DNA from: a virus
Length of the DNA stretch: 64,000 bases
IMG/VR virus record: IMGVR_UViG_3300027704_003324
Location: 1-64,000 of that record
Strand: one strand, 5' to 3'
Below, piece by piece: positions 40,006 through 60,336 of this stretch (position 1 is its first letter; every line of letters starts with the position of its first letter). Under the pieces are notes generated by a model. It was not told the DNA's origin. It did not search any database and saw only the letters and a list, made by a program, of their open reading frames with translations. Position numbers and translations under genes: made by a program.

Positions 40006-40073
40006 ATAACTTTATTTGTTAATTATTAATATACGATTAATTTATAAAAGAAACAACCCTAGAGCGGGTTAAT

Positions 40074-40487
40074 TTAGCTAATTTTCAAAGTTTTTGATTC
40101 TTTTCCTTTAGCATACGGTATTGTAACTTGCAATAAGCCATTTATAAACTCAGCTTTTGCTTTTTGTAGATCAAATCTACTGTCTATCTTCCAACCTAAG
40201 TTAAATGATCGTTTGGCTATACCTTTATGTATATAGTCAGTTGCTTCACCTTCTAAGGTTGGTTTGTTGTAATTGATTTTAATAATATTACCCTCAATTA
40301 AGATTTCGATATCTTCTTTTGGAATTCCGGTACAGGCTATATCTAAGCCAAGGCCGTTTTCTAATTCGTAAATATCTACTGGGTGGGGTAATTTTGACTC
40401 TTCTAACGTTTGGTAGTTGTGAGTCTTTTGCAAAAAATTGCGGACTAAAATGTCGAACGGATTACGTTCTTGAAAAATGTTACTCAT
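40074..40487 (-). CDS. Hsp20 small heat-shock protein
   Basis: P.DIYE, YIHKGIAKRSF, A.F.NGLL.V.IP. Confidence 0.92.
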   Translation of the reverse strand: MSNIFQERNPFDILVRNFLQKTHNYQTLEESKLPHPVDIYELENGLGLDIACTGIPKEDIEILIEGNIIKINYNKPTLEGEATDYIHKGIAKRSFNLGWKIDSRFDLQKAKAEFINGLLQVTIPYAKGKESKTLKIS

Positions 40488-40588
40488 AATGATATAAAAT
40501 TGTGGAGTCCTAAGATCTCCGGTTAATAAAAATAAAAATTGCTCTAGGGTCGATCTTTATTCTTTAAATAAATAGGTTTAATTTAAGT

Positions 40589-42952
40589 TTAATGCCCTTC
40601 ACTCCAGTTATTAGCGATTTCAGGAGGTGCTTTTAAAGTAACTCCAGGTAGTACTGTAGTATCTTCCATAATCTGTTGAACATGAGGAGCAAACATTGCA
40701 GCATCCTTTTCAGATACGTTAATAATCAATTGATCATGAACCTGAGCTTGAACAATAGCATCTATGCCTAGTTCTTTTGCTTTACGGTTAATCATTACAG
40801 CAGCTCTATTTACTACGGCAGCTGCTAGTGACTGCAATTGAAAGTTAAGACAGTTATTAAGTCCGTTACGGTAATCTCTATAAGCTTGCATAACAGCTTC
40901 TTTACCGTATTGAGGAGTAATACTTTGTCTGAATCTCCAATCCATCATTTGATCTCCGTACTTGCCAAAGATCTTTTTCACTTTAGGTAAGTGCCTAACT
41001 CTACCAACATAGTTTTTAATATAACCATGATCTTTAACTTGAGTTCTAGAATCTAACCTCCATTGCTTAAGTTGAGGAAATCCATCTAGATAACCTTTTA
41101 CTAATCCTTCAGCAGACTTTTGATCAATACCTAAAGTCATTTTAAGAGCATAAGCTTCCATACCGTATGCAATACCTAATGAATAAGCTTTAGCTTTATT
41201 ACGAGCAGGCCCATCTAACTTCTTTAAGTAGTTATCTGCTTTCTTATCTGCAGATACTCCGTTAGGAAAACGAGATTTCTGATCGTCTAACTTCTCAGTT
41301 TTAATAGCTACAGTAGAGTAGAAGTCCCATCCTTTATTAAAGATCTCTTGAAGAGCAGTATCACCAGTAACAGAAGCAAAGCAATGAGGCTCTAGAGATT
41401 CGTAATCGGCATCGATTACTTTTCTACCTTTACCTGCAATCATAAATTCTCTAACTATATTAGTATACTTAACGATAATAGGAGCATCCTCACCTTCTTC
41501 TTTAGGTTTAGGAAGCTGCTGAGCATCAGAACCATATCTACCGGATACAGTACCGTTCTGCTTATAGTAGAAGTAGTATCTACCGTCCTCTTGACGATCT
41601 CTAAAACGATCTACATAAGTAGATTTAATCTTAAGAAGCTTATTGTATACACGTAAATTTTCAGCCCAAGAATAAGTCTTCGCTAAATCTTCTATCATAT
41701 CCATATCGAATTGAGCTCTACCGCTTTTAGTCTGACCAGCAGCTTTTAGAGGTTTAATGCCCATATACCCAAATACTATTTCACCTAAATGCTTTTTAGA
41801 TTGAATATTTAAGTATTCACCGTCGTTAGACTCTTTCCACATAGCCATAGATATTCTAGCTTGCTCTACTTCTTCGATAAGATCTACGTTACCAGTCATT
41901 AAGAACTCTTTTACTTTTTCTTCTTTATCGTTAGACGGTTCATAAGCTTCTATATTCTTCTGAGTAAGAGAGTACTTGCCAGTCTTTTCAGATTTCGGTA
42001 AAGGTATAGAGTAACGAGTAACTAGGTTCTGAGCCCAATTACCTTTATGGGATACGGGATATTGATCTAATGCAGTAGCTACTATCCAACTCTTAGTTTC
42101 ATCTAAAGCTAATAAAGACTTCATTACGATCTCTTTATTATTAATCAAATCTGCTGCAATAGCAGTATAAGTAGATTCTATTAAGTCCATATCTAAATCA
42201 ACTCCTTCAGCTTCCATAGGTACAGTAACTTCTCTGTAGATAGGCATTACCTCATCCTCAAAGAAGAACTTCTCTAGTCCTTCCTCTTTAAGTTTCTTTA
42301 AATATAAATTACATATACGTAAAGTTAAATCCGTATCTGCCGATGCATACTTACTAAGTATATCTAAATCAGCTTTAAAGATTTCATAGAGTAGTTTAGT
42401 AGTAGAACCACCATTCTTCTTAATAGACTCTTTAAGCTCTAATTGCTCTTGGTTAGCAGCTTCCTGAACATCTAATCCTAACTCTTTTTGATTCATTATA
42501 GCAATAGACTTTAATCCAAAAGGATTACCAAATCCAAAAGCTCCTTCTTCGTATACCGTATGAACTAATAGTCCAGTATCGACATATATATCTTCTATCA
42601 AATCTACTCCGAAGTAGTTCTTAATAAACTGAACATCAAAGGAAGCATTATGGAAGACTAGTTTCTTACCTTTAAGTAACTTAAGTAAATTCCTAGATAA
42701 TAGTTCAGTAGAAGTACCGTCAATCTCTTGCAGCACTAATTCATCTTTCTCATAATCAAAAACTAAGGTTGGTAGATAAAAACCTACTCCTTCATCTCCA
42801 GATACAGACCATCCGATGATCTTATTCTTTCTAGGGTTTAAACCAGTAGTCTCAGTATCGACTGCTATTACGTCAGAGTCAATAATGTGTTGATGTAGTA
42901 GTTCAAGAGTTTCTTTATCTTGAACCGTGTAATACTTTTTTTCTAATTGCAT
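40589..42952 (-). CDS. polA: family A DNA polymerase with 3'-5' exonuclease domain
   Basis: Exo DTETTGL, HNASFD, YA..D; TVSGRY; motif A DADYESLE, motif B RNKAK..LGIAYG, motif C VHDQ. Confidence 0.95.
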   Translation of the reverse strand: MQLEKKYYTVQDKETLELLHQHIIDSDVIAVDTETTGLNPRKNKIIGWSVSGDEGVGFYLPTLVFDYEKDELVLQEIDGTSTELLSRNLLKLLKGKKLVFHNASFDVQFIKNYFGVDLIEDIYVDTGLLVHTVYEEGAFGFGNPFGLKSIAIMNQKELGLDVQEAANQEQLELKESIKKNGGSTTKLLYEIFKADLDILSKYASADTDLTLRICNLYLKKLKEEGLEKFFFEDEVMPIYREVTVPMEAEGVDLDMDLIESTYTAIAADLINNKEIVMKSLLALDETKSWIVATALDQYPVSHKGNWAQNLVTRYSIPLPKSEKTGKYSLTQKNIEAYEPSNDKEEKVKEFLMTGNVDLIEEVEQARISMAMWKESNDGEYLNIQSKKHLGEIVFGYMGIKPLKAAGQTKSGRAQFDMDMIEDLAKTYSWAENLRVYNKLLKIKSTYVDRFRDRQEDGRYYFYYKQNGTVSGRYGSDAQQLPKPKEEGEDAPIIVKYTNIVREFMIAGKGRKVIDADYESLEPHCFASVTGDTALQEIFNKGWDFYSTVAIKTEKLDDQKSRFPNGVSADKKADNYLKKLDGPARNKAKAYSLGIAYGMEAYALKMTLGIDQKSAEGLVKGYLDGFPQLKQWRLDSRTQVKDHGYIKNYVGRVRHLPKVKKIFGKYGDQMMDWRFRQSITPQYGKEAVMQAYRDYRNGLNNCLNFQLQSLAAAVVNRAAVMINRKAKELGIDAIVQAQVHDQLIINVSEKDAAMFAPHVQQIMEDTTVLPGVTLKAPPEIANNWSEGH

Positions 42953-42969
42953 ATATATAACCGTTTTAT

Positions 42970-43515
42970 TTATTTAATAATATACGAAAAATTATTCAGA
43001 ATAAAAAATTCTTGAACAGCTTTTTTTCCGTCTTTTATATTTAACTTGTCTTGGTACATTTTTTCTATTGTATCCAATCTTGGAGTATAATCTACTTCTA
43101 TATCATCGTCCATTTGCGTAATTTTATCATCAAATGCTCTAGTATAAATTTCAAATTCTCCTCCAAACTCTTTTAAGAATTCATGCATTGCTGGAGCTAG
43201 CCATCCTGTATTGGCTCCTGATCCTTGTAAGTAGTTTCTTCCTATTCTCTGGTAAAGTTTCTGTGTACATCCTATTTTAAAATGTTGCTGTTTTCCGTCA
43301 GGAGCTTTATACACAAGGTCATAAATTGCTCTTTGCATAGGAAAGTCTGTTGGGACCATAGTAATATGATCTTTAGTATCTCTTCTGACTTTTAGTTTAA
43401 GGAAATACTTGTATCTATTTACTTCTGTAATATGCTCTGTTAGAGCTCTTTTGCTTTGTTCTAGTTCTCTCGGCAAAACAAATGAGTCTAGGTACTCAAA
43501 ATTCTTTGGAATCAT
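42970..43515 (-). CDS. GIY-YIG-like endonuclease
   Basis: AIYDL...FKIGCT..L..RI..Y, distal Glu (IEK); promoter at 43543-43575. Confidence 0.55.
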   Translation of the reverse strand: MIPKNFEYLDSFVLPRELEQSKRALTEHITEVNRYKYFLKLKVRRDTKDHITMVPTDFPMQRAIYDLVYKAPDGKQQHFKIGCTQKLYQRIGRNYLQGSGANTGWLAPAMHEFLKEFGGEFEIYTRAFDDKITQMDDDIEVDYTPRLDTIEKMYQDKLNIKDGKKAVQEFFILNNFSYIIK

Positions 43516-43559
43516 TATAACCTTTTTAATTATTAATATACCTTAAGATACGAAATATT

Positions 43560-44138
43560 CTACAACTTACCAACTAATTCTTCAGGTAAATCTTCATCTT
43601 TTATCTTAATATTATTTTCTTTTTCTATCTGAATCAGACACATACGTTTCATATTAATGTCTCCTGTAGAATATGCCCAAATAATAGAAGCTTTAAGTCC
43701 TTCTATTTTATTGCCAAAACTTGAACAGCTTTTTTCTAGAAGCTCTTTCTCGTTTTCAGATACTTCAAAAGTAATATCATTGTTAGTAGCCCAATTGAGC
43801 AGTCCCATAAAATCATTAGAGTCATAGTACTCTTTTATTTCATTGAAATCTTCCAATGAGCCTCCTTTATCCGGATGAGCTTTAATTGATACTTTTCGGT
43901 ATAATTTTTTTAGCTTCTCTGGTTTCTCTTTCTTTTTAGCTATATTGTCTCCAGGAGGAGTATCTCTCATCTCTCCTGTGTCTTTATTTACCCAATATTC
44001 TTTTTTTACTTTATCAAAATACTTACCAAAAGTTGACTCCCATATTTTCTCATATTCTTTAAACTCCTCTTGAGTTTCTTCAAACTCTAGTTTTAAAAAT
44101 TGGTACTTATGAGAGTACTTCTTTATGAATTTTGACAT
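43560..44138 (-). CDS. J-domain (DnaJ-like) protein
   Basis: LKKLYRK.....HPDKGG...F..I...Y. Confidence 0.8.
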   Translation of the reverse strand: MSKFIKKYSHKYQFLKLEFEETQEEFKEYEKIWESTFGKYFDKVKKEYWVNKDTGEMRDTPPGDNIAKKKEKPEKLKKLYRKVSIKAHPDKGGSLEDFNEIKEYYDSNDFMGLLNWATNNDITFEVSENEKELLEKSCSSFGNKIEGLKASIIWAYSTGDINMKRMCLIQIEKENNIKIKDEDLPEELVGKL

Positions 44139-44407
44139 TAATATTCTCCGTATAAGTCGAATACCTTAGCTTCCGGAACTTCTTCTTCTACTATAAATTC
44201 TTTAATTGCAAATAGTTTTCCGTTTAATGGCTCTAACCTATAATGTCCTTTAAATTTAGTTTTTCGTAAGTACTGAGTTAATGCTTCTACTAGACCTTCA
44301 ACAACTGTCTCTTTATCTATTACTAGTTCCCAGTTATCTCCAGGAGGAACACGAACTGCAATTAGTTCGTATTCTTCTTCGATCTTTGTTTTGTTATCTT
44401 CAGCCAT
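44138..44407 (-). CDS. hypothetical protein
   Basis: coupled ORF. Confidence 0.65.
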   Translation of the reverse strand: MAEDNKTKIEEEYELIAVRVPPGDNWELVIDKETVVEGLVEALTQYLRKTKFKGHYRLEPLNGKLFAIKEFIVEEEVPEAKVFDLYGEY

Positions 44408-45348
44408 TATTGTCTTAATGTTTTCTTAATTCTATAGTCTCTTGAAGTAAAGAATTCAGGTATTAAAGATGAATGGCTAGCTCTAACAGGGTTAATATCT
44501 AAACCTCCTCTACGAGTATACAGACAAGATACCATTAACTGTTCTGGTTCGTATGCGTCTGATAGATGCTTATATACCATTTCGCAAATCTCTTCATGAA
44601 AATGACTTACTGTACGGTGAGAAACTATATACTTAGCTAGTGAATCAGCAGATGGTAATTTCTTACCTACCATTTTAATAAATACATCTCCCCAATCAGG
44701 TTGATTAGTAACTCTACAATTAGATCTAAGTAAGTTAGATTTTAATTTAACCTCTTTAGCTACATCTGATGTATCTTCTACTGCTAATTGAGTAGCATCA
44801 GATTGAAACGATGTAAAGTCAATTTGATCTAAATCTACTAATCCTCCTAAGTCTTCGTAACCTTCAAAAGATAGTTCTAATCCTTCTTCTTCACTTGCAA
44901 AGAAAGTAACAATTGTATTAGTTTCTAAAAGTTCATCTAAGTCTCTTTTAACAGTAGCTTCTATTCCAGTAATACAGTCCATAGCATTATCAGCTATTCT
45001 AGTCATATTGAAAGAATTCAAATATAACTTAATAGATTTAGACTCTACGTGAAATTCAGAATCAGAAGGGCATGTAATTTTAAGGAGTCCTGCTACTGGT
45101 TGACCTTTAGTCGTAATAGCAGATACTTCATAACAGTTCCATGTATCAACTCCTACAAAACTATCTGATGTTAGGTCGTAGCCTTCTCTATTTAAGTATC
45201 TAGGGATTTTAACTAATAGCTCTCTATTATACTGGTCAGAGTATCCATCTCCACCAACTTTACCTAAGTGCTTTCCAGCAATTGCTACTACTTCGTCGTA
45301 ATTTTTTACTTTTTCCATTTTATTTATTTTATTATATAATCTATCCAC
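44407..45348 (-). CDS. queF: NADPH-dependent preQ0 reductase, bimodular (type II) QueF
   Basis: D.WNCYEVS, VESKSIKLYLNSFN, LLRSNCRVTNQPDWG, FHEEICE, YTRRGGLDINP. Confidence 0.93.
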   Translation of the reverse strand: MDRLYNKINKMEKVKNYDEVVAIAGKHLGKVGGDGYSDQYNRELLVKIPRYLNREGYDLTSDSFVGVDTWNCYEVSAITTKGQPVAGLLKITCPSDSEFHVESKSIKLYLNSFNMTRIADNAMDCITGIEATVKRDLDELLETNTIVTFFASEEEGLELSFEGYEDLGGLVDLDQIDFTSFQSDATQLAVEDTSDVAKEVKLKSNLLRSNCRVTNQPDWGDVFIKMVGKKLPSADSLAKYIVSHRTVSHFHEEICEMVYKHLSDAYEPEQLMVSCLYTRRGGLDINPVRASHSSLIPEFFTSRDYRIKKTLRQ

Positions 45349-45938
45349 TTTGTTCCTTTAGTATCTATATTAGGAAATTCAAATACTCTTACAATAGCGT
45401 GTTTATCATCACCAATTGTAATTGTCTTTCTAAACCCTGAGGGTATAGTTGCACCAGTCGGTAAAACTACTTCTTCTCCTTCAAATAATACGTCTACTCT
45501 TACTTTAACATCTTCGTTAAAGAAGTTTGCTGCTGATCTTTCAAAAGCCTCTAATTTACTCCATTGACCTCTATTTAACCCTTGATGCTGTAAAGCTGAA
45601 TTAAGGTAAGAGAACGTTTTATACAGCATACCGGTATTACAGCTAAATGATGCTGCTGGTGCTAAATGACCTTTATCCCATATATTGTCTTTATAGTCTT
45701 CATCATCTGAGGTTACAATCATGTCTGGTTCCCAGAATTCCATACCTACTCTTGAAGCATTTCCATTAGAACAGAGTACTGTATATTCTACCCATAATGG
45801 TTGCTGTCTCTGTTGATCGTACTCTACTGTGAATATATCGGTTACTATAACTTGTGCGTTTGCAGTAGTTGAAGAAATGATAAAAGCAAAAGCCAATAAC
45901 ATCATCCAAAACAATTCTACTTTATCTAATTTTTTCAT
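45324..45938 (-). CDS. DNA/RNA non-specific endonuclease (NucA-like) with signal peptide
   Basis: WDKGHLAPA, N...Q...LNRG.W..LE, IPSGF.K. Confidence 0.9.
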   Translation of the reverse strand: MKKLDKVELFWMMLLAFAFIISSTTANAQVIVTDIFTVEYDQQRQQPLWVEYTVLCSNGNASRVGMEFWEPDMIVTSDDEDYKDNIWDKGHLAPAASFSCNTGMLYKTFSYLNSALQHQGLNRGQWSKLEAFERSAANFFNEDVKVRVDVLFEGEEVVLPTGATIPSGFRKTITIGDDKHAIVRVFEFPNIDTKGTKWIDYIIK

Positions 45939-45939
45939 A

Positions 45940-46458
45940 CTATTTTATAAATTTTAATATTTGCTCTACTCTTTGCATAGGAGAACCTGTTATCGTCAAA
46001 TAAGGTTGACGTACACCTTCTAATACTGCTTTAAACTCTTCATCAATATCTGTTCTCCACTTTTCATTTACACTTCTTACTCCATCATCTACTGATTCAA
46101 ATTCAATAGGGAAGTAAACATAGTGAGTATATTCTCCTTTTACTCTATTCCAAGTATCATTTATATAGTTATATGTCTTAATAGATAATTCATCCATAAA
46201 CTTAGAATATACGAGTAAATCCATATAACACCTATCTAAGACTAGGTTATAAGGTTGAAGTAAAGCCTCTAAATGAAAACTACTAATAGCTAACTGAGTA
46301 GCATCAGTACCTTTCTCATTAATAGGAAATCCGTAACTACCTACAGTTCTAGTAGATTCATTTACGAATTCATATTTAGGTAATTTATTTTTAAGTAATT
46401 CATAAACAGTAGTCTTACCTGTACTACTAGCTCCTACTAATGCAATTCTCTTTATCAT
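45940..46458 (-). CDS. P-loop nucleotide kinase-like protein (AAA_28/NadR-Ttd14/dNMP kinase-like)
   Basis: GASSTGKTT, LDRCY.D..VY, DDGVR, G...QRV. Confidence 0.8.
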   Translation of the reverse strand: MIKRIALVGASSTGKTTVYELLKNKLPKYEFVNESTRTVGSYGFPINEKGTDATQLAISSFHLEALLQPYNLVLDRCYMDLLVYSKFMDELSIKTYNYINDTWNRVKGEYTHYVYFPIEFESVDDGVRSVNEKWRTDIDEEFKAVLEGVRQPYLTITGSPMQRVEQILKFIK

Positions 46459-46507
46459 ATAACCTCTTTATTTACTTAAAGATACGAATTATTTCTCTAA
46501 TAACCTA

Positions 46508-47050
46508 CTACACACCTGCTTTTCTTAAAAAATGAATCCATAAGTATTCAGATCTCTGCTGTAATGCTTTAAACATTTCGTCCTTAGTAATACGCCAAGC
46601 ATTAAATCTTTCCTCTGATATTATTTTACCTTCATCTACTCCTGCAGTTACCTTATGTAATACACATCCCATAACATCATGTTTAGCTTCATAAGCTCTA
46701 ATTTGAGGGTCTTTACCTTTTAATTCTGGGTACTCAGTAATAAGGCCTGGATGACCGTTATAAATTCCATGCTTTTCGCATATTGATGGAGGAACTACTC
46801 TTAACCATCCGTGTAAAGTAATTAAACTATCTGGAAAGTATACAAGTAGGTCTTCATACTCTTCTAAGGTAGGTTTATTACTCATAGTGAAATAACCTTT
46901 CTTTTCTATTCTAGAATCTATTGTTCTAAGGTGTTCAGGTCTATCATTAGTAATTATCCTATCAGGCCAGCGTCCTAAGCTTTCCGCTAAGTTAGCTATT
47001 TCAGAACCTGTTTGACTAAAAAACGCTATCCAAGTATTTGATTCACTCAT
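46508..47050 (-). CDS. dpdN: PurN-like formyltransferase, predicted preQ1 formyltransferase (DpdN)
   Basis: FSQTGSE, HGWLR, YNGHPG, H.VTAGVDEG; located in the que/dpdA cluster. Confidence 0.8.
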   Translation of the reverse strand: MSESNTWIAFFSQTGSEIANLAESLGRWPDRIITNDRPEHLRTIDSRIEKKGYFTMSNKPTLEEYEDLLVYFPDSLITLHGWLRVVPPSICEKHGIYNGHPGLITEYPELKGKDPQIRAYEAKHDVMGCVLHKVTAGVDEGKIISEERFNAWRITKDEMFKALQQRSEYLWIHFLRKAGV

Positions 47051-47672
47051 TTAATGTTGTTGATTTAATTCTAATATTTTCTATCTGTATAGGTTTTATA
47101 CCTCTAAGTTTAAAACTCAAACCTAATGCAAGACCTGGTCCATTACCTTTACCGCTAAAACTATTATCTTCAGATCCTATTTCAATCCATAGTTTTTCAG
47201 CTAAAGTTAAGTCTAAAACTATACCCTTAAGATACGAATTATAAGGCAGTATTCCAACTTGTTCTAGTACTGGTGTTACTTCAGTTGGGTCTACTCCTAA
47301 AGATTCCATATACTTTACTGCTTTGCTCCAGTATGCCTTTGTATACCAAGATCCTTTCCAACCACTTTGTACATAAAAATTATCGTCTGGTGGTATATGT
47401 GATGCTTTTACAGCATCTTTAAGTTTATCAGCGTCTGCATAAATAACTTGTTGTTTAATACATTGTGATATGAATATTGGCCAATAGTACTGTTCGAAAT
47501 AATTAAAAACTCCTTTGTTTGTCGGAGCCATATTAAAGATATTATAACCCTCTACTTCTATGTGAACATCGGTTTGAAGATATATAGTTGACTTCTTATC
47601 AATATATTTTATATTATTTAAAAAATCTTTTCTATGTTCATCTCCTATTGCTATGATACAATAATTAGCCAT
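47043..47672 (-). CDS. hypothetical protein with GT-A-like DxD motif
   Basis: start reassigned to MANYCIIAIG; VIYADAD; lies between dpdA and dpdN. Confidence 0.5.
   Translation of the reverse strand: MANYCIIAIGDEHRKDFLNNIKYIDKKSTIYLQTDVHIEVEGYNIFNMAPTNKGVFNYFEQYYWPIFISQCIKQQVIYADADKLKDAVKASHIPPDDNFYVQSGWKGSWYTKAYWSKAVKYMESLGVDPTEVTPVLEQVGILPYNSYLKGIVLDLTLAEKLWIEIGSEDNSFSGKGNGPGLALGLSFKLRGIKPIQIENIRIKSTTLNE
47227..47259 (-). promoter_or_regulatory. internal class-I promoter upstream of dpdN
   Basis: AGTTG-N16-TTCGTATCTTAA inside the coding sequence, exact spacing. Confidence 0.6.
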
Positions 47673-48462
47673 TTGTAAACCATTTAAATTTTTGTATATT
47701 ATTTTTAATAGTATCCAACTGCTCAATTGTGAGCTCTGAGTTAATTAGTTCATGAAGTTTCTGACGCTCTTTAGACCATAGTCCATCGGTTCCGTATGTA
47801 ATTCCTTTAATTCCATGTACTACAGGATTTGAAGTATCTAATGAGTAGATCCAATCATAGTCAGAATGCTTATAAAAACTAAACTCTTGAGGAAGTCCAC
47901 ATCCTAATAAGTGATGAGGCTTATCTTTATTAATTACCCCGTCTTTAAGTAAGTCTCCTAGTAGCTTAACACGTCCTAGCATCCAACTAACGTACTTGTT
48001 AGCATGAGGAAAAGAATCGGTGTAATACGAATAATCAAAAGAGATAGCAATCATATCTACATTAGCTATTTCATCCATAGCTTTGTAACATTCTCTGATT
48101 TGCTTATAATTTTTACCTTGAACAACCCCTATACTTTTACCAGGGACATCACTATGGTTTTTAGTCCAATTTGCAGCTTGTTGCATAGTCTTATGAGCAT
48201 CTTCTAAAGCATCCGGAATAATATACCAAGTAGGTCTTATTTCTTTAACCCAATATGCAAATTTATGTGCATCAAACGCTTCTTCTAATTCAAAGATAGA
48301 GTTATCTAAAATAACCTCTCTACCACTAGCTATTGCTTTCTTAAATTGTTCCAAATAAATTGGATCCTCTTCAAAGAGGTGCACTAAGGCATAATCGTAA
48401 TCAGTTAAATACTGTACTTCATCAAAAATACTCTTCGGACTTTCGTGTGCTATTTTAATCAT
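47665..48462 (-). CDS. dpdA: TGT-like DNA 7-deazaguanine transglycosylase (DpdA, probably DpdA3 type)
   Basis: ILDNSIFE, IIPD, GVVQG, HHLLG, SLDTS TIM-barrel motifs; que gene context. Confidence 0.8.
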   Translation of the reverse strand: MIKIAHESPKSIFDEVQYLTDYDYALVHLFEEDPIYLEQFKKAIASGREVILDNSIFELEEAFDAHKFAYWVKEIRPTWYIIPDALEDAHKTMQQAANWTKNHSDVPGKSIGVVQGKNYKQIRECYKAMDEIANVDMIAISFDYSYYTDSFPHANKYVSWMLGRVKLLGDLLKDGVINKDKPHHLLGCGLPQEFSFYKHSDYDWIYSLDTSNPVVHGIKGITYGTDGLWSKERQKLHELINSELTIEQLDTIKNNIQKFKWFTNG

Positions 48463-48643
48463 TTATTTCTGTTCTAAAACCTTTATCTAAATTAACCAAT
48501 GACTTTTGTACCATATTTACTACCTCATCTAATTTTAAAGTAACTAAATCAATGGCTGCAGTTGCAGTATCAAGAGGTATATACTTTACTCCCTCTATCT
48601 CTTTTACATCTTTCAGTAGATCTATTTGCTTATCTTTACTCAT
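48455..48643 (-). CDS. hypothetical protein
   Basis: coupled ORF. Confidence 0.6.
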   Translation of the reverse strand: MSKDKQIDLLKDVKEIEGVKYIPLDTATAAIDLVTLKLDEVVNMVQKSLVNLDKGFRTEIND

Positions 48644-49227
48644 TATATTCCTATTGATTCGTTTCTAAATTTAGCTAATTCATCATCAGAGAAGAATTGA
48701 TGTAAGTCTGGTCTGAAGTAATTAGTTGCTTTCATTACTTTTCGGTCTCTAGATCGATAGACAATATACCGTCCTTCCTTAACCTTCTCAAAATGGCAGG
48801 CCTCACCTTGCTCCGTACTTCTTTGGCTGACGGCCTGTATGGCTTCTTCTTCAGTAGTACAAGCTTTTGACATATTGCTTGCTTGTACTTCTGCATATGC
48901 GGGCCGTATCTTATCCTTAAGGCCATGTAGCATAACACCGTTCCCAAGGGAAACATAAGTAATGTCGCACAAAGCGTCCAGAACTTCCACAATGTCTCCG
49001 TTTTCGCAAGCGACTCTATATTCTTCAAGTTCTTCGAGTATGAAGTCGTAAACGAATTGCCACTCTTTCTTAGCTGGTATAGTAGGTTCATAATTATTTG
49101 GTTTATTAAAAGTATCGTTAAAAATCTCTACTTCATCTACGAAAGGAACTGGGTTGATAGTAACCTTACCATCCGCCTCACTCCAGTTTCCAGCTTTTTC
49201 AGGAAATAATTTTAATTGCTCACTCAT
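48643..49227 (-). CDS. MazG-like (PRA-PH/DR2231-type) NTP pyrophosphohydrolase
   Basis: ILEELEEY, EVLDALCDITYV, V..SNMSK, KV.K. Confidence 0.85.
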   Translation of the reverse strand: MSEQLKLFPEKAGNWSEADGKVTINPVPFVDEVEIFNDTFNKPNNYEPTIPAKKEWQFVYDFILEELEEYRVACENGDIVEVLDALCDITYVSLGNGVMLHGLKDKIRPAYAEVQASNMSKACTTEEEAIQAVSQRSTEQGEACHFEKVKEGRYIVYRSRDRKVMKATNYFRPDLHQFFSDDELAKFRNESIGI

Positions 49228-49228
49228 C

Positions 49229-49432
49229 TTAATATACTTTAATAATTCTAGATTCTGTTAAGCTAATAATTTTAAAGTTAGTCTCACTAAGCTCTTCTAA
49301 CATTTTATATGTTTTAGCTTCAGCTTCTGTTCCTGTCATAGCATCTACTAAGTATACTTCTTTTACTTTTTGAATTCTACCATTATCGTTTTCTCTTTCA
49401 AACTGGGTAGTTACTTGCCAATAATTTGTCAT
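49229..49432 (-). CDS. DUF4494-like protein (Bacteroidota family)
   Basis: ENDNG..QKVKEVYLVDAM...EAEA. Confidence 0.7.
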   Translation of the reverse strand: MTNYWQVTTQFERENDNGRIQKVKEVYLVDAMTGTEAEAKTYKMLEELSETNFKIISLTESRIIKVY

Positions 49433-49439
49433 ATCTCTT

Positions 49440-49967
49440 TTATTTATTTAATTTATTAGTATTTTCTTTAGGCATTGTTAAACCTCCTATAAGGTTTATG
49501 TCATCTCTTTCGTCCTGTCTTTCATCTGGTTCGTTTGCTAAAAGCTCATTAGCCATTTCTATCCACTCCGGTAGGTCTACTTGTTCTTTATCTAAGACCT
49601 CTTGCATAGTTCCGATCCATTCATCTTCTCTTTTATAATCATCTTCTAATCGTACTATATCATCTTCTCCGAAGTAGGTACCAGTCTGTACTTCTATAAA
49701 TCTTACTGGTTTATCTGTTTCATTCCAAGCTCTATGTTTAGCTCCTAATGGTATTTTAATAGATTCTCCTGCTTTTCTAAATACTTTCTCATCATCAAGT
49801 ATAATAGTTAGTTCACCGTAGATAACAGTCCACTGCTCTTTACGTTTCGTGTGGTACTGGTAAGAGAGTCTTTGTCCGGGTTCAACTTCTATAATCTTAA
49901 CTTTAGCTTCTGAGGTATCATGTAATACTTCATATGCACCCCAAGGTCTATATTCTAATGACGACAT
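49440..49967 (-). CDS. type II mannose-6-phosphate isomerase cupin
   Basis: RPWG.Y, V.PGQRLSYQYH..R.E.W, IEVQTG.Y.GEDDIVRLEDDY.R. Confidence 0.9.
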   Translation of the reverse strand: MSSLEYRPWGAYEVLHDTSEAKVKIIEVEPGQRLSYQYHTKRKEQWTVIYGELTIILDDEKVFRKAGESIKIPLGAKHRAWNETDKPVRFIEVQTGTYFGEDDIVRLEDDYKREDEWIGTMQEVLDKEQVDLPEWIEMANELLANEPDERQDERDDINLIGGLTMPKENTNKLNK

Positions 49968-50668
49968 ATGCTTGCTAATTCTATATTCTTATAAAACTCT
50001 GCTTTTGCAGAATCCTCATTTAAAAATGCTCCTGTTAACTTAGCAGTCTGCATTGAAGCTCCTTGATGCTTCACTCCTCTACAACTTACACAATTATGTG
50101 TTGCAGATATCATAACTGCTACTCCTAAATTACCTTCACATATCTTATTAACAGCATTATGAATAGCAACTGTTAATTGTTCTTGAATAGCACCTCTTCT
50201 TCCGAATTGCTCTACTATTCTATTTAATTTAGATAAGCCGACAACCTTCCCGGTCTCTGAAGCTATATAAGCTATGCTCACTTGTCCACCAATATTTTGG
50301 TGGTGGTGGGAGCACATAGACGTAACTGGAATATTAGATTCTTGTACGATTCCGTCGTAGCCGTCGCTAGGGAATGCCGTAATTCTGTCTAATGGCTCAT
50401 ATCGGCCCTTCCATAAATCGTTAACGTATGCTTTCGCTACTCTACGGGGAGTCTCAGAAGAGTTCGGATCATTTTTCCAATCCGTACCAAGAGCAGTCAA
50501 GAAGTCTCCAAATGCTTTTTCAGCATTATTAATGATAACTTCCTTCTCTTCTGATGTTAATCTAGCCTCAGGTCCGTCGGTTGCCTGCTTATCTGCTAGT
50601 TGAATGGATATACCGTTTGCATATCCAGCTTTTACTAATTCTGTTCCTTCTATAAACTTCTTTGCCAT
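49955..50668 (-). CDS. folE: GTP cyclohydrolase I
   Basis: TPRRVAK, SMCSHH, GLSKLNR, IQEQLT, HNCVSCRGV; start reassigned to MAKKFIEG. Confidence 0.95.
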   Translation of the reverse strand: MAKKFIEGTELVKAGYANGISIQLADKQATDGPEARLTSEEKEVIINNAEKAFGDFLTALGTDWKNDPNSSETPRRVAKAYVNDLWKGRYEPLDRITAFPSDGYDGIVQESNIPVTSMCSHHHQNIGGQVSIAYIASETGKVVGLSKLNRIVEQFGRRGAIQEQLTVAIHNAVNKICEGNLGVAVMISATHNCVSCRGVKHQGASMQTAKLTGAFLNEDSAKAEFYKNIELASICRH

Positions 50669-50678
50669 TTTCTCTTTA

Positions 50679-50705
50679 CTTGTTTTGTAGTGGTGCTTCA
50701 ACACT
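50679..50705 (-). ncRNA. preQ1-I-like riboswitch aptamer (folE leader)
   Basis: AGUG-UUGAAGCAC-CACU-ACAAAACAAG, between the promoter (50716-50748) and the folE start. Confidence 0.65.
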
Positions 50706-50734
50706 TATTAATACTTTAATATACGATTTTATTT

Positions 50735-51142
50735 TCATTTAACCAAATAATCTTGTATAGGATTTGAATTATCTTTTTCCCATGGATAAACTATCCACCC
50801 ATAATCATCTGCTATTTCTTGTGCATAGTACTCTGGTTTTGCTACTGATGTTGTCTTATAGTGAAGAGTAGCAAATTTAGGGTTAAACATAGTACCTCTT
50901 AAATCAAAGATTGTTTTACCGCTATCTGCTATATCATCTATAATCAATAGCTTAGGATAGTGGTTACTTGTGTACTGCATATAAGGTACTTCAAACCTAT
51001 GTGAGTACATTATTGCTAAAATGGTGCCTCCTCTTGGTATTCCAGTAACGTAGTCTATACTACCTTTACATTGTTCGTGTACTTTATCTAATAGTTCATA
51101 GACATCATCCCAAGTTAAGAATATTTTTTTTATTTCTCCCAT
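50735..51142 (-). CDS. type I purine phosphoribosyltransferase (Gpt-like)
   Basis: GIPRGG, LLIIDDIADSGKT, WIVYPWE; start probably MGEIKK. Confidence 0.9.
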   Translation of the reverse strand: MGEIKKIFLTWDDVYELLDKVHEQCKGSIDYVTGIPRGGTILAIMYSHRFEVPYMQYTSNHYPKLLIIDDIADSGKTIFDLRGTMFNPKFATLHYKTTSVAKPEYYAQEIADDYGWIVYPWEKDNSNPIQDYLVK

Positions 51143-51270
51143 GTTGTTGTTGTTGTCCATATCGTAGGATCTATTACGTAGTTAAGTTCTTTCTCAAAGT
51201 TTAATTCTCTTACTTTTTTGCCTAATTCTTGATCATTAGGTGTGTCGTGTATTATTTGTTTAAGGTTCAT
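51130..51270 (-). CDS. small hypothetical protein (46 aa, [11 protein letters not shown] motif)
   Basis: translated by hand; overlaps both neighbours slightly. Confidence 0.45.
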
Positions 51271-51571
51271 ATTTTAATCCAAAAAATTTATAATTATTTA
51301 TAACTGCTTCTTTTTCTCCGTCGGCGATTGCATCTTCTTCTGTTTCGTATATTGCGTCTACTGGGCATTCTGGTATACAGGCTCCACAATCAATACATTC
51401 GTCTGGGTTGATATAAAGGCTTTTGCCTATTAGTTGTGATTTGGTCATTTCTGCAACTTCTGCTCCTGCTCCTGTTATATCTATAGGACCATGTATACAG
51501 TCTACAGGGCAAACTGTTACGCAAGCTGTATCGCAGGTACTAATGCACGGACTTCCTATTATATAACTCAT
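51260..51571 (-). CDS. dicluster 4Fe-4S ferredoxin
   Basis: C...CD.ACV.VCPVDCI and [13 protein letters not shown]. Confidence 0.92.
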
Positions 51572-52350
51572 TATACTTCTCTTTGATCTTCAAATGCAAT
51601 GATATGGGGTCTCCAAGTCATTCTATACCCATTATCTCTAACCCAATCAAACAATACAGGGTAAGACTTAAATAGAGATTCTCTTGAGTCTCCTGCAGGC
51701 ATAAACCATACTTTATCTTGAGGTGCTTCTAAAGTATCTATACATTCCATTATTTCTTTTAATGCTGCTTTATCTTTACCATCCCATACCGGCTTTAAGT
51801 GGTAGTTAGAATGGTATGCAATACTTTTTTTCATTGCTTCATAATTAAGTCTAAACTTATTATGTTGTTTAATCATCCTTTCATCAGTAATCTTACCTTG
51901 TGGTGTTGCCACTCCAAGTACAGGTACCGAGTTAGAGAATTTGGGACTGATAGAAAGCAAATTGATAGGATAATCCGTAGGTAGAAAATGACTACCTTCG
52001 TTCTCCATAGTAATAAAAATATCTTTTTCATTAGCAAAATGTGTTAATTCATTAACTAGTTTTCCATGCATTGAAGGTGATCCTCCAGTAAGCATCATTT
52101 CTTTAATATGAGGATTCTTCTCATATGCTTTAATTATATCATTAAAGTTATATTGACCTTTATCTGGATGAATAGATGTATACCAGCTATCACACCAGCC
52201 TCCTTCTCCAAAATAACATCTATGAGTACATCCTGTAGTTCTAATCACTACCGTTGGATAACCTGCTCTACTACCTTCTGACTGTACCGCTGTATATATT
52301 TCTACAATCGGTAAATTTTTATCGTAATCTTCTACTCTACCTAGGGACAT
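51571..52350 (-). CDS. queE: 7-carboxy-7-deazaguanine synthase (radical SAM)
   Basis: QSEG..AG.P, RTTGC...C........CDS, LTGG.P, SISPK. Confidence 0.92.
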
Positions 52351-52804
52351 ATATTGCTGAGTTTTTACCGTGTTCTCTAAATTCTACTTTTATAACTTTT
52401 ACTCTACCTTCAGTTTCCGTTTCTATGAATGGAGCTAACTTTTCGTATATATACTGTGAGAACTTCTCTGCTCCTGTAGCAGGTACTACTCTAACCTGTG
52501 CTATACCTATTTGATTAAGCCTCATTGCTTCAGGTAGAAATGGATCGTCTTCTGCTATTAAGTAGGTATGGTCAAACATATGATCCATCCATACTTTTGG
52601 AGACATTCCATCTATTAAGGTCTTAGCTCTTTTCATTCCTCCGAAATCCCATACCCAGTTTCTTTCATCTAAATCTCCTTCAAACCATAGTTTAAAAGAT
52701 ACTCCATAACCGTGTAGAAATCTACAATGAGTAGTTTCGGCTTTCCATTGTCGAAAGACTGTACTGAATCCATCGAATACTTTTGTTGATTGATATTTTG
52801 CCAT
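52337..52804 (-). CDS. queD: 6-carboxytetrahydropterin synthase
   Basis: HCRFLHGY, WVWDFG, FDH, AE, VEFREH. Confidence 0.9.
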   Translation of the reverse strand: MAKYQSTKVFDGFSTVFRQWKAETTHCRFLHGYGVSFKLWFEGDLDERNWVWDFGGMKRAKTLIDGMSPKVWMDHMFDHTYLIAEDDPFLPEAMRLNQIGIAQVRVVPATGAEKFSQYIYEKLAPFIETETEGRVKVIKVEFREHGKNSAIYVPR

Positions 52805-52812
52805 AATATAAT

Positions 52813-53064: not shown

Positions 53065-53066
53065 TT

Positions 53067-53094
53067 CGTGTTTTTAAAGTGGTACTGTGACACT
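53067..53094 (-). ncRNA. preQ1-I-like riboswitch aptamer (queD/queE operon leader)
   Basis: AGUG-UCACAGUAC-CACU-UUAAAAACACG followed by AA-AUG; promoter at 53111-53143. Confidence 0.7.
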
Positions 53095-53152: not shown

Positions 53153-53171
53153 TAATCTTCTGTATTTTATT

Positions 53172-58844: not shown

Positions 58845-59660
58845 TTAATCTCTTCCTTTAATAACGGCTGAATTATGGTCTGAAAGTATAAGCTCTACAT
58901 GCGTTTTCGCAACGTTGTATTCAACTTCTCCACTTTCATCCTCATATTGTACAGGGTCATCCACACCCAACATGATAAATGCTTCAATTCTTTCAACAGA
59001 TGATGCTGATTTATAGTCGCTATTACCGCTAGGATAAGGCTTATAGGAAGTATTAGTACGTTTGTACACTTCATTAAAATCAATTCCCAACTCTTTAACC
59101 AGTTTCTGTCCATCTTTTAATATTCCAAATTTGTCTGTATCTAAGTAAGGAGTAAAATACCCTACTCTTTCTGCATCCCAATTCCCTTCTCGAAATGCTA
59201 AATCATCCGCGTCTCTAAACTCTTGTCTACAGTCCGGATATACTGCATGATCACCTGCGTGAATACCTAAAGCAATATCACAGGTCTCTTCTGCTTTATT
59301 AGCTACTGATAATGCTACAGCTTGTGTAATAGAAGCAAATATCTTATTCCTATTAGGTACTACTGTTTCTTTCATATTATCATTCTCATAATGTCCTTCA
59401 GGTACATCATCTCCTCCTTCAACTAATGCTGAATCTAGAAGGCTTGCAAGTCCGTCTAGTTTAATTTGACGATAATTAACTCTATGACCATTATCAGCTA
59501 GATAATTAATTAAAGATTGAGCCTTTTCTAACTCTACTCTATGCTTTTGACCATAATCAAATGAAATACCAGTTACGGTATCGTACTCTTTTAATGCTCT
59601 TAATAATAATGTGGAACTATCCATTCCACCACTTAATGATACTACTACATGCTTTGCCAT
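58845..59660 (-). CDS. queC: 7-cyano-7-deazaguanine synthase
   Basis: SLSGGMDS, FDYGQKH, VVPNRN, YPDCR.EF, S..ER..AF; the usual C-terminal Zn cysteines are replaced (SYKP...SASS). Confidence 0.93.
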   Translation of the reverse strand: MAKHVVVSLSGGMDSSTLLLRALKEYDTVTGISFDYGQKHRVELEKAQSLINYLADNGHRVNYRQIKLDGLASLLDSALVEGGDDVPEGHYENDNMKETVVPNRNKIFASITQAVALSVANKAEETCDIALGIHAGDHAVYPDCRQEFRDADDLAFREGNWDAERVGYFTPYLDTDKFGILKDGQKLVKELGIDFNEVYKRTNTSYKPYPSGNSDYKSASSVERIEAFIMLGVDDPVQYEDESGEVEYNVAKTHVELILSDHNSAVIKGRD

Positions 59661-60072: not shown

Positions 60073-60336
60073 TTAAAATAATATTAACTCTTTTAGGGCT
60101 TGCTCTCTTAATTGCCCTACTTCTTTCTTTACTTCTTTACCTTCCTGTAGTACGACTGTAAAAGGAATACTCTTAACTTTATATTCTGCTGCTAATCCAG
60201 TAGTATCCGTTTCAATATTTACATTAACGAATTCTACCTTATCTTTTAGCTCTTCAGCTACTTTATCAAAAGTTTTAGCATAGACTTTACATGGTCCACA
60301 CCAATCGGCGTAGAACTTAATTACTTTTGTTCCCAT
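60073..60336 (-). CDS. trxA: thioredoxin
   Basis: FYADWCGPCK, VKSIP. Confidence 0.92.
   Translation of the reverse strand: MGTKVIKFYADWCGPCKVYAKTFDKVAEELKDKVEFVNVNIETDTTGLAAEYKVKSIPFTVVLQEGKEVKKEVGQLREQALKELILF

Follow-up and report, generated by a model that had tools for sequence, protein, structure and literature searches.

The 64,000-nt window comes from an uncultured, immuto-like phage of the Flavobacteriia (Flavobacterium type) and carries a system for replacing every G of the genome with 7-formylaminomethyl-7-deazaguanine (fdPreQ1). In systems of this type the transglycosylase DpdA3 has a small kinase and a MazG-type NTP pyrophosphatase as specific, conserved partners. We tentatively take this context, with a little less than even confidence, to mean that DpdA3, flanked in the pathway by the pyrophosphatase and the kinase, would exchange the base of free guanine deoxynucleotides before replication. 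The gene set for replacing every G with formyl-preQ1 is itself already known; what our analysis covers is which genes are present, their homology and folds, and how far their context is conserved. All genes from PolA through RNR (40589-63799) lie on the minus strand:

40589..42952, minus strand: PolA, family A DNA polymerase with 3'-5' exonuclease, 787 aa (Pfam DNA_pol_A E 3.2e-53, DNA_pol_A_exo1 E 1.5e-11; 70% identity to immuto PolA)
44407..45348, minus strand: QueF, preQ0 to preQ1 reductase, bimodular type, 313 aa (Pfam QueF_N E 1.4e-27, QueF E 3.4e-18; 64% identity to immuto QueF)
45324..45938, minus strand: Endonuclease_NS, accessory non-specific DNA/RNA endonuclease, 204 aa (PF01223 E 1.1e-24)
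45940..46458, minus strand: P-loop nucleoside/nucleotide kinase, dNK / dTMP-kinase / NadR-RNK fold, 172 aa (AAA_28 E 3.6e-17)
46508..47050, minus strand: DpdN, PurN-like formyltransferase, 180 aa (Pfam Formyl_trans_N E 1.7e-9; 53% identity to immuto DpdN)
47043..47726, minus strand: accessory ORF of unknown function overlapping dpdA3 and dpdN, 227 aa (no match in Pfam, PHROG or NCBIfam)
47665..48462, minus strand: DpdA3, minimal TGT-like TIM-barrel transglycosylase, 265 aa (no Pfam match; 74% identity to immuto DpdA)
48643..49227, minus strand: MazG/HisE-like all-alpha NTP pyrophosphohydrolase, 194 aa (Pfam PRA-PH E 5.5e-10, 40 bits with the cut-off at 21.3; PHROG 671 nucleotide pyrophosphohydrolase E 5.5e-28; 73% identity to the immuto homologue; no match in a PDB sequence search)
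49955..50704, minus strand: FolE, GTP cyclohydrolase I, 249 aa (Pfam E 1.5e-43; 79% identity to immuto FolE, 74% to phiST FolE)
50735..51160, minus strand: small Gpt-type 6-oxopurine PRTase, 141 aa (Pribosyltran 30 bits with the cut-off at 26.3; PHROG 8995 E 2.4e-18)
51260..51571, minus strand: 4Fe-4S ferredoxin, accessory, 103 aa (Pfam Fer4 E 3.7e-10)
51571..52350, minus strand: QueE, 7-carboxy-7-deazaguanine synthase, 259 aa (81% identity to immuto QueE; weak Pfam Radical_SAM match)
52337..52804, minus strand: QueD, CPH4 synthase, 155 aa (Pfam PTPS E 5.4e-14; 73% identity to immuto QueD)
58845..59660, minus strand: QueC, preQ0 synthase, 271 aa (Pfam QueC E 2.2e-38)
60082..60330, minus strand: thioredoxin (PF00085, 70.7 bits, above the cut-off)
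61089-62804, minus strand: class I RNR large subunit (Pfam Ribonuc_red_lgC E 3.8e-99)
62819-63799, minus strand: class I RNR small subunit (Pfam Ribonuc_red_sm E 6.8e-66)

The original prediction had the que genes intermixed with a PRTase, a MazG-like pyrophosphatase and a P-loop kinase; all named genes are present, at or near any position it gave them (DpdA, for which it gave none, is the ORF at 47665-48462), and the nearby thioredoxin and RNR (61089-63799) are borne out by Pfam. Its finer gene order needs adjusting: the kinase and dpdN are neighbours but are separated by 49 nt, and polA does lie downstream of the kinase but only past queF and three small ORFs. By ORF coordinates, that 49-nt gap is the sole exception in a run from the MazG-like gene to a DnaJ-like gene in which neighbouring ORFs abut or overlap; Endonuclease_NS sits between the kinase and queF. 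The arrangement is no chance juxtaposition. Its core genes recur almost throughout 80 related IMG/VR loci (counting, for each gene, only loci with sufficient flank): the kinase in 64/64, MazG in 73/74, the PRTase in 63/70 and DpdN in 62/67, with PolA kept in 55/55. The accessory genes are variable (cupin 16/71, ferredoxin 15/67, Endonuclease_NS 34/63, the 227-aa ORF 2/73). The cluster consists of two modules; the one for insertion is the compact series MazG-like pyrophosphatase - DpdA3 - DpdN - kinase.

Fourteen proteins of the window are 40-81% identical to those of immuto (Cui 2023, NAR 51:9214) and follow the same order (PolA, QueF, kinase, DpdN, DpdA3, NTP pyrophosphohydrolase, DUF4494, FolE, PRTase, QueE, QueD), and the window's gene set is expected to give the same product, fdPreQ1 for all G; immuto DNA gives no dG peak and contains 345,000 fdPreQ1 per 10^6 nt (Cui 2023, PMC10516641). 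The window additionally holds Endonuclease_NS, the 227-aa ORF between dpdA3 and dpdN, the cupin, the ferredoxin and a carbamoyltransferase/APS-kinase-like block; Endonuclease_NS, which possibly serves host-DNA breakdown, finds no counterpart at E<=1e-3 in the compared stretch of immuto. The words 'kinase' and 'phosphoribosyl' are absent from the main text of Cui 2023 (PMC10516641), where MazG appears for phiST alone.

The partners of DpdA3 emerge from an unbiased ranking of IMG/VR neighbours within 10 kb of 69 representative DpdA3 loci, forming 25 lineages at 60% identity, with 80 loci (62 lineages) around phiSM-type DpdA as control. DpdN is found in 17 of the 25, the kinase in 16, QueF in 14, QueE and QueD in 12 each, FolE and QueC in 11 each, and replication genes in at most 7. 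With the phiST-type AAA_18 kinase counted, a dNK/TMPK-fold kinase is present in 18/25 DpdA3 lineages versus 0/62 phiSM-type lineages; MazG-type pyrophosphatases are present in 10/25 versus 3/62, and a ParB-like protein in 0/25 versus 19/62 (Fisher p on lineages 2.5e-13, 1.3e-4 and 1e-3, values that overstate the evidence because the lineages are not phylogenetically independent). DpdN is absent from all 62 control lineages, and the phage's own contig has no ParB-like gene. In 15 of the 18 kinase-bearing lineages the distance between DpdA3 and the kinase is 0-80 nt, or about 500 nt where DpdN lies in between (the other gaps are 807, 1463 and 1493 nt); loci without the kinase have a small MazG at 0-523 nt from DpdA3. 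Among distant isolates, CP220 has the order HD/P-loop protein - DpdA3 - kinase, the first of which could equally be a polynucleotide kinase-phosphatase, and phiST the order MazG-like - DpdL - P-loop kinase-like - DpdA3. The window kinase is 27% identical to CP220 gp057, whose gene adjoins CP220 DpdA3; its best PDB match by profile is the NadR RNK domain (E 3.7e-5), and its AF2 model (pLDDT 88.9) finds deoxyadenosine kinases, dTMP kinases and NadR as top Foldseek matches, so that by profile and modelled fold it is a small-molecule kinase. It is not obligatory, because five phage genomes (36-44 kb, 99-100% complete), with the order MazG - DUF3310 - ThyX-like - DpdA3 - DpdN - PolA, all lack this kinase family, the PRTase and FolE. 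Nor can these phages supply enough base on their own for full replacement.

DpdA3 itself has no Pfam match; it shares 74% identity with the DpdA annotated in phage immuto_2-6A, 41% with CP220 gp056 and 26% with phiST CGPG_00065, and its family comprises 1461 clusters (50% identity) at E<=1e-3. Foldseek places its AF2 model (pLDDT 97.8) closest to tRNA-guanine transglycosylases (E 2e-8) and DpdA 7ui4. Nothing can be read from its small size or its lack of a Zn site, since both also hold for phiSM DpdA (240 aa). If exchange precedes replication, the MazG-like enzyme would convert dGTP to dGMP, draining the canonical pool while feeding the next step; DpdA3 would put preQ1 in the place of guanine while the deoxynucleotide, or else the deoxynucleoside, is still free, DpdN would formylate the aminomethyl group, and the dNK/TMPK-fold kinase would re-phosphorylate the product, leaving the triphosphate to be finished by host NDP kinase. 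PolA would then synthesise DNA free of G from the start; no special role for it is indicated, and this PolA was not noticed in the Campylobacter and Cellulophaga phages that carry the module. The best PDB matches of DpdN are nearly all GAR transformylases, and its N98/H100/D139 align with N106/H108/D144 of E. coli PurN; its N-terminal loop reads SQTGSE where PurN has SGNGSN, by which a phosphate site is neither proven nor excluded.

This scheme is favoured by the DpdA3-specific kinase and MazG linkage, the absence of a ParB-like partner and the small-molecule type of the kinase. It is also favoured by precedent, since the known complete phage base substitutions (hmC, hmU, U, 2-aminoadenine) are made before replication. 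Moreover, attempts to obtain DpdA3 activity in an E. coli DNA-modification model failed (discussion of Cui 2023, PMC10516641), and cells infected with CP220 contained the ADG nucleoside in their cytoplasm (Crippen 2019, as cited in Cui 2023, PMC10516641); a modified-dGTP route has been 'proposed for Campylobacter phages' (Hutinet 2019). Against it, the five small genomes do without the kinase, MazG-type enzymes are within 10 kb in only 10 of the 25 lineages, none of 150 DpdA3 representatives is fused to a kinase, MazG or PRTase, and a mononucleotide substrate is known for no member of the TGT/DpdA superfamily, whose characterised members all use tRNA or DNA (PMC10164549; Cui 2023, PMC10516641).

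That polynucleotide precedent sustains the main alternative, the published model of exchange after replication, which we regard as a serious possibility though short of probable: PolA would make ordinary G-containing DNA, DpdA3 would replace each G of the polymer by preQ1, DpdN would formylate the base or the DNA, the PRTase would recycle the released guanine, and the kinase and MazG-like enzyme would be general nucleotide-economy genes travelling with the cassette, the kinase perhaps as the phage's only dNMP kinase. Indeed, no other dNMP/dTMP-kinase-like gene was detected in the 139-kb contig, which makes a general role possible. The abstract of Cui 2023 (PMC10516641), the only paper on this system, takes the DpdA in every modified phage as a sign that insertion is post-replicative, a 2024 opinion from the Campylobacter phage group has the exchange 'into an existing DNA strand' (PMC10877033), and the five small genomes would fit a self-sufficient DpdA3/DpdN pair working at DNA level on a host-made base. 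However, a post-replicative exchange leaves unexplained why DpdA3 is specifically linked to a small-molecule kinase and to NTP pyrophosphatases of several families. Bacterial Dpd (DpdA, ParB-like ATPase DpdB and DpdC; Salmonella Montevideo, PMC10164549) and the phiSM type share with DpdA3 a homologous TIM-barrel fold and the same 7-deazaguanine precursors, but they act on DNA at low stoichiometry with a ParB-like partner, which bacterial DpdA requires for this action (PMC10164549), whereas DpdA3 loci have the kinase and NTP pyrophosphatases instead. In the discussion of Cui 2023 (PMC10516641) other DpdA types are reported to reach modification levels of 0.1-30%, and a 100% exchange of G on both strands with no sequence preference would be unprecedented among known DNA transglycosylases. 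A putative division of labour, with bulk replacement in the pool and DpdA3 correcting residual G (primers, repair patches), would square the TGT-family precedent with the nucleotide-enzyme context, but it demands that one small enzyme take both monomer and polymer substrates and we consider it unlikely.

The PRTase or DpdA had been predicted to load the 7-deazaguanine base, with guanine recycling as the alternative for the PRTase, and here it is the alternative that fits best. A profile of the family hits the P. horikoshii purine PRTase 1vdm at E 8e-26 and E. coli XGPRT at E 1e-19, and the protein carries the PRPP motif LLIIDDIADSGKT and a C-terminal WIVYPWE. The gene adjoins FolE in the window phage, immuto and StAshley, 15 of the 80 phiSM-type control loci have PRTase-FolE fusion ORFs, and the PRTase shows no DpdA3 enrichment (10/25 DpdA3 versus 18/62 phiSM-type lineages). 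Because it neighbours or is fused to FolE and does not track DpdA3, its likeliest role is salvage: it probably converts free guanine to GMP and hence GTP, which would also suit a large guanine release by exchange on DNA. Of the predicted pool route, the kinase and MazG-like components are supported, whereas base loading by the PRTase is not.

A tubercidin-like ribonucleotide route, in which preQ1 or a precursor is coupled to PRPP by the PRTase, turned into the diphosphate by the kinase, reduced by the phage RNR and incorporated by PolA as the deoxy-triphosphate while DpdA3 only clears residual G, strikes us as the most improbable reading. TubE, which joins CDG and PRPP in tubercidin biosynthesis, offers a precedent (PMC6112128), RNR and thioredoxin genes are nearby, queuosine-type genes accompany this PRTase in 6/6 examined of 27 phage-database records, and cyanophage BUCT-ZZ01 has QueE-PRTase-x-QueD-FolE with no detectable DpdA3. 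TubE and ToyH (tubercidin, toyocamycin; PMC6112128) resemble the window in setting a purine-type PRTase among FolE/QueD/QueE homologues; the phage enzyme (141 aa, Gpt-like, against 194 aa for TubE) differs in size and in context, the FolE adjacency and fusions pointing to guanine salvage. Its Gpt-like motifs are retained, the conserved Asp in DDIxDSGKT among them, and the fusion partner FolE is the GTP-consuming entry enzyme rather than a late one. The PRTase is equally common with phiSM-type DpdA, yet phiSM, the one analysed isolate of that type, replaces only ~1% of G (Cui 2023, PMC10516641). Such a route would, moreover, allow the modified base to enter the NTP pool and hence RNA, and it leaves the universal DpdA3 and its tight kinase link unexplained.

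Exchange on free nucleotides before replication would instead place DpdA3 beside familiar systems of complete replacement. T4 has the triad of gp56 dCTPase, gp42 dCMP hydroxymethylase and gp1 dNMP kinase, and the 2-aminoadenine system has MazZ, PurZ, DatZ and DpoZ. By analogy, the window may likewise unite a canonical-dNTP pyrophosphatase, a nucleotide-level modifier and a kinase, with one base fully replaced; its candidate modifier differs in being a TGT-fold transglycosylase that would replace the base outright instead of decorating or rebuilding it, and no polymerase selectivity is indicated. The position of DpdA3 beside a nucleotide kinase and a pyrophosphatase may mean that in these phages the base swap precedes the copying of DNA.

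The window covers the opening 64 kb of an IMG/VR viral contig 139,240 bp long (estimated completeness 84%), with a G+C content of about 33% and nearly all genes on the minus strand. The original prediction had listed que genes, a purine phosphoribosyltransferase (PRTase), a MazG-like pyrophosphatase and a P-loop kinase next to dpdN, with polA, ribonucleotide reductase (RNR) and thioredoxin nearby, and every listed item was found in the window.

Genes of the cluster and its surroundings in the window
40589-42952, minus strand: PolA
between PolA and QueF, minus strand: two ORFs without assignment and a weak DnaJ-like ORF
44407-45348, minus strand: QueF
45324-45938, minus strand: Endonuclease_NS nuclease
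45940-46458, minus strand: AAA_28 P-loop kinase
46508-47050, minus strand: DpdN, PurN-like formyltransferase
47043-47726, minus strand: 227-aa ORF, overlapping dpdA3 and dpdN
47665-48462, minus strand: DpdA3; the next gene is a 62-aa ORF
48643-49227, minus strand: MazG/HisE-like NTP pyrophosphohydrolase
between the MazG-like gene and FolE, minus strand: DUF4494 and cupin genes
49955-50704, minus strand: FolE
50735-51160, minus strand: PRTase, 141 aa; the next gene is a ferredoxin gene
beyond the ferredoxin gene, minus strand: QueE and QueD
block between QueD and QueC, minus strand: NodU-type carbamoyltransferase, cytidylyltransferase-like, APS-kinase-like and flavodoxin-fold genes
58845-59660, minus strand: QueC
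60082-60330, minus strand: thioredoxin
61089-63799, minus strand: class I RNR

This gene set is a new member of the already described system that makes fdPreQ1 (7-formylaminomethyl-7-deazaguanine). In the DNA of Flavobacteriia phage immuto_2-6A (immuto), the closest known relative, from which the names DpdA3 and DpdN derive, dG is undetectable and fdPreQ1 reaches 345,000 per 10^6 nucleotides (Cui 2023, PMC10516641). The window's TGT-like transglycosylase is 74% identical to that of immuto (E 2e-147), 41% to that of CP220 (E 3e-56) and 26% to that of phiST (E 6e-10); measured against these three phages with complete G replacement, it appears by homology to belong to the DpdA3 subfamily.

Post-replicative exchange in DNA is the field's stated view (Cui 2023, PMC10516641; PMC10877033), and insertion has been called 'a post-replication event' with the constant presence of a DpdA as the argument (Cui 2023, PMC10516641). 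Tests of DpdA3 in E. coli are described there as unsuccessful, and the words 'kinase' and 'phosphoribosyl' are absent from the main text of that paper, whose supplements may list the PRTase, the kinase or MazG. According to Hutinet 2019 (PMC6884629), Crippen 2019 had suggested a modified-dGTP route for phages of Campylobacter, and Cui 2023 (PMC10516641) mention at second hand, citing Crippen 2019, that the ADG nucleoside occurs in CP220-infected cells. We tentatively favour, at a little short of an even chance, a DpdA3 that exchanges the guanine of free deoxynucleotides before replication, a route of which we infer every mechanistic step. To our knowledge, DpdA3 is the sole enzyme proposed for complete replacement of G by a 7-deazaguanine in phages, and its activity has never been demonstrated; we also know of no TGT-family enzyme that uses a mononucleotide, which counts against exchange in the nucleotide pool.

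Across 80 immuto-like IMG/VR loci, counting only those with enough flank, the core genes are the kinase (64/64), the MazG-like gene (73/74), the PRTase (63/70), DpdN (62/67) and QueF (62/62), and the variable ones are the cupin (16/71), the ferredoxin (15/67) and the endonuclease (34/63). The Endonuclease_NS gene lies inside the insertion module with the kinase and queF on either side, and it has no match within the compared stretch of immuto; its product could supply the pathway with breakdown products of host DNA. Only two of 73 relatives carry the 227-aa ORF, and family searches of its sequence gave no match. Between queD and queC (53172-57640) lie a 557-aa ORF without assignment, a NodU/CmcH-type carbamoyltransferase (54984-56654), seen in 14 of 50 immuto-like relatives, and the cytidylyltransferase-like and APS-kinase-like genes. 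The run of ORFs that starts with the MazG-like gene and ends with the DnaJ-like one is contiguous or overlapping, with a single gap, of 49 nt, ahead of the kinase, and no terminator-like site was found on the minus strand at positions 42165-53300. A scan of positions 40000-53300 for sigma-70-type promoters was uninformative (54 sites against 54.6 expected), and at positions 52700-53300 no Rfam preQ1 riboswitch family matched at E<=1, the only match being a weak one to the trpB motif (53115-53209, E 0.12).

A second, more diverse sample brought the total to 166 loci in 25 lineages (60% DpdA3 identity). Single-protein searches for loci had found four relatives for phiST DpdA, five for CP220 (three full-length, two weak and partial) and none for phiSM, and alignment queries were used instead. 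Neighbours were ranked by unbiased clustering of all ORFs of at least 75 aa in 69 representative loci, unnamed families being labelled by Pfam. DpdN leads with 17 of the 25 lineages, followed by the kinase (16, or 18 with the phiST-type kinase included), QueF (14), QueE and QueD (12 each), FolE and QueC (11 each), a dCTP-deaminase-like family (10), and the PRTase and small MazG (9 each); replication genes reach at most 7/25. In its ten lineages the dCTP-deaminase-like gene (PF22769) is no more than 10 kb from DpdA3, for example at 8534-9079 of locus L093 and in relatives. Of the 18 kinase-bearing lineages, 15 have the kinase either at a distance of 0-80 nt from DpdA3 or some 500 nt off, immediately past DpdN; in the others the two genes are 807, 1463 and 1493 nt apart. 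Five kinase-less lineages (2, 3, 11, 16 and 20) have a small MazG gene 0-523 nt from DpdA3. The arrangement recurs in isolates far from immuto: in CP220, DpdA3 stands between an HD/P-loop protein and a homologue of the kinase, and in phiST the order is MazG-like gene, DpdL, P-loop kinase-like gene, DpdA3. Brevundimonas phage StAshley (ON529865.1 6975-15775; L007/L012) has a weak DpdA3-like ORF (E 3.6e-6) directly before its DNA polymerase, with RNR, dNMP kinase, FolE and PRTase genes beyond.

Not all DpdA3 phages conform. Five genomes of 36-44 kb that are 99-100% complete (L137, 8866-13518; L146, L168, L179 and L117) encode MazG, DUF3310, a ThyX-like protein, DpdA3, DpdN and PolA in a row and have no kinase of this family, no PRTase and no FolE. 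The kinase is therefore dispensable in some phages, which counts against exchange in the nucleotide pool, and these five would have to rely on a base made by the host.

The control was the other phage type of DpdA, that of phiSM, whose DNA carries about 1.1% dPreQ1 (Cui 2023, PMC10516641). The phiSM cluster consists of FolE, QueF, a 240-aa DpdA, a ParB-like gene and then QueC, QueD and QueE, without kinase, MazG or PRTase. We searched 80 IMG/VR loci around phiSM-type DpdA (62 lineages) with the same profiles as the 25 DpdA3 lineages; the Fisher p-values that follow are indicative only, because lineages share ancestry. The kinase was found in 18/25 DpdA3 against 0/62 phiSM-type lineages (p 2.5e-13), DpdN in 17/25 against 0/62 (p 2.2e-12), MazG types in 10/25 against 3/62 (p 1.3e-4), the ParB-like gene in 0/25 against 19/62 (p 1e-3) and the PRTase in 10/25 against 18/62 (p 0.33). 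Bacterial DpdA needs the ParB-like ATPase DpdB to act on DNA (PMC10164549). The two DpdA types thus differ in their neighbours: phiSM-type DpdA goes with a DNA-handling ParB-like protein, and DpdA3 with enzymes of free nucleotides.

The kinase is predicted, from its model and its profile, to be a small-molecule nucleoside or nucleotide kinase of the dNK/TMPK/RNK fold. Its P-loop residues G9, G14, K15 and T17 are invariant, the closest profile is the ribosylnicotinamide kinase (RNK) domain of NadR (E 3.7e-5), and the model (pLDDT 88.9), which Foldseek matched to deoxyadenosine kinase, dNK, dCK, dTMP kinase and NadR at TMq 0.61-0.76, superposes on deoxyadenosine, deoxyguanosine and deoxycytidine kinases, dTMP kinases and NadR; a single-sequence PDB search gave nothing. 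It stays below the cut-offs for thymidylate kinase, the annotation given in immuto and CP220 (TIGR00041, 28.8 bits against 83.25; PF02223, 19.7 against 27). Homologues with 24-32% identity occur in 89 Streptomyces phage records (e.g. MF347639.1 68688-69167), often beside a methyltransferase. All 17 Campylobacter records with the kinase are CP220-like, and it matches none of the Fletchervirus (deoxyinosine) phages; most records of Campylobacter Firehammervirus (e.g. NC_027997.1) have two kinase-matching places, the second being a paralogue with about 29% identity. The MazG-like protein scores 40 bits with Pfam PRA-PH (curated cut-off 21.3) and its neighbours in the atlas are, without exception, viral PRA-PH clusters, with no PDB relative by single-sequence or profile search. 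DpdN, 53% identical to immuto DpdN, keeps the catalytic Asn/His/Asp of PurN (N98/H100/D139, aligned with PurN N106/H108/D144). The N-terminal loop of PurN binds phosphate and its conservation would indicate a 5'-phosphorylated substrate; the corresponding loop FFSQTGSEI, invariant in 19 DpdN sequences, aligns with LISGNGSNL of PurN and gives nothing firm on a phosphate group, because Glu replaces Asn13.

DpdA3 itself is modelled (AF2, pLDDT 97.8) as a bare TGT-like (beta/alpha)8 barrel of eight strand-helix units, with TGTs as best Foldseek matches (E 2e-8, TMq 0.65) and also DpdA 7ui4. In 81 sequences D53 and D84 never vary and D209 is kept in 90% or more; these candidates for the active-site aspartates occur in the order expected from D95, D130 and D256 of bacterial DpdA (compared by sequence order alone), and only about 56 residues lie beyond the putative nucleophile. 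Neither the structural Zn motif (CXCX2C...H) nor the large Ins8 insertion of bacterial DpdA/TGT was seen in DpdA3; this absence does not separate DpdA subfamilies, because phiSM DpdA (240 aa), from a partially modified phage, shares it, so it fails as an argument against DNA binding. DpdA3 is acidic (median pI 5.47; 76/81 below 7), which is uninformative since PolA of the same phage is acidic too (pI 5.65); as arguments for exchange in the nucleotide pool, the small size, the lack of a Zn site and the acidity thus all failed their controls. The family comprises 1461 clusters at 50% identity (E<=1e-3) and includes fusions to DpdN (proteins P0032 and P0105), to DUF3310 (P0149, a Pfam match, and P0141, judged by eye), to a C-terminal region that looks GNAT-like on inspection (P0093) and to a 317-aa N-terminal region of no assigned family (P0003); acyl-preQ1 derivatives besides formyl may be made. 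Among 150 representatives none is fused to a kinase or pyrophosphatase, a further point against exchange in the pool.

The PRTase does not share in this contrast. It keeps the PRPP-binding motif LLIIDDIADSGKT, and its family profile aligns from end to end with archaeal purine PRTases (1vdm, E 8e-26) and E. coli XGPRT (E 1e-19); motif and overall homology place it among the Gpt-type 6-oxopurine phosphoribosyltransferases, in a divergent viral branch, with 39.5 bits in the NCBIfam xanthine PRTase equivalog (cut-off 138). In the isolate database it occurs in 27 records, of which all but four, from three other sources, belong to the groups of immuto, CP220 and phiST, and it is absent from the listed QueE-bearing phages of phiSM-like, halovirus, mycobacterial and streptococcal type; the specificity for complete replacement suggested by these isolates was overturned by its presence in 18/62 phiSM-type lineages of the metagenomic control. 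The PRTase adjoins FolE in the window, immuto and StAshley, and lies within a QueE-QueD-FolE block in the T4-like Synechococcus phage BUCT-ZZ01 (L008, ON615601.1 69843-72623; QueE, PRTase, a 118-aa ORF, QueD, FolE), in whose record DpdA3 was not detected anywhere. In 15 of the 80 control loci PRTase and FolE are fused in a single reading frame of about 300-340 aa, with an N-terminal Gpt-like PRTase and a C-terminal GTP cyclohydrolase I (L259:7178-8122, L218:5079-6068), an arrangement that we did not encounter in the literature cited here. Adjacency and fusions link the PRTase to the first, GTP-consuming step of the pathway. It is probably a guanine salvage enzyme, through which guanine freed by base exchange would return to GMP and GTP; this had been the alternative in the original prediction and is now preferred. 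The other role considered there, the PRTase as base loader, fares badly, the gene being equally common beside both DpdA types and tied to FolE. TubE loads a 7-deazapurine onto PRPP (PMC6112128), and a TubE-like role here is highly unlikely.

Of the predicted pool route, the kinase and pyrophosphatase part thus gains from a specific, controlled genomic association, and the PRTase part gives way to salvage. DpdA3, a putative dGTP pyrophosphatase and a dedicated kinase would together form a pre-replicative pathway. That DpdA3 is the first TGT-fold enzyme to exchange the base of free guanine deoxynucleotides or deoxynucleosides and, with these two enzymes, brings about the complete pre-replicative replacement of G across a large and widespread phage group is quite conceivable, if short of probable. 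Post-replicative exchange in DNA, for which the small kinase-less genomes leave room, is a serious contender, if somewhat less likely than the nucleotide-level route given the neighbours of DpdA3; a mixed mode, which could accommodate both sets of observations, is improbable, and a ribonucleotide route through the PRTase, present beside both DpdA types, very improbable.

The contrast singles out the deciding enzymes: the company of DpdA3 is a kinase and NTP pyrophosphatases, that of the other DpdA type in phages is a ParB-like protein, and that of the PRTase is FolE. If the swap takes place in the nucleotide pool, pyrophosphatase, DpdA3 and kinase would offer enzymatic access to 7-substituted 7-deaza-dGTPs, compounds of use as reagents, and the TGT superfamily would gain a new substrate class. 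7-Deazaguanine would then join hmC, hmU and 2-aminoadenine as a replication-level substitution, and the published conclusion that 7-deazaguanine modification of DNA is all post-replicative would be overturned.
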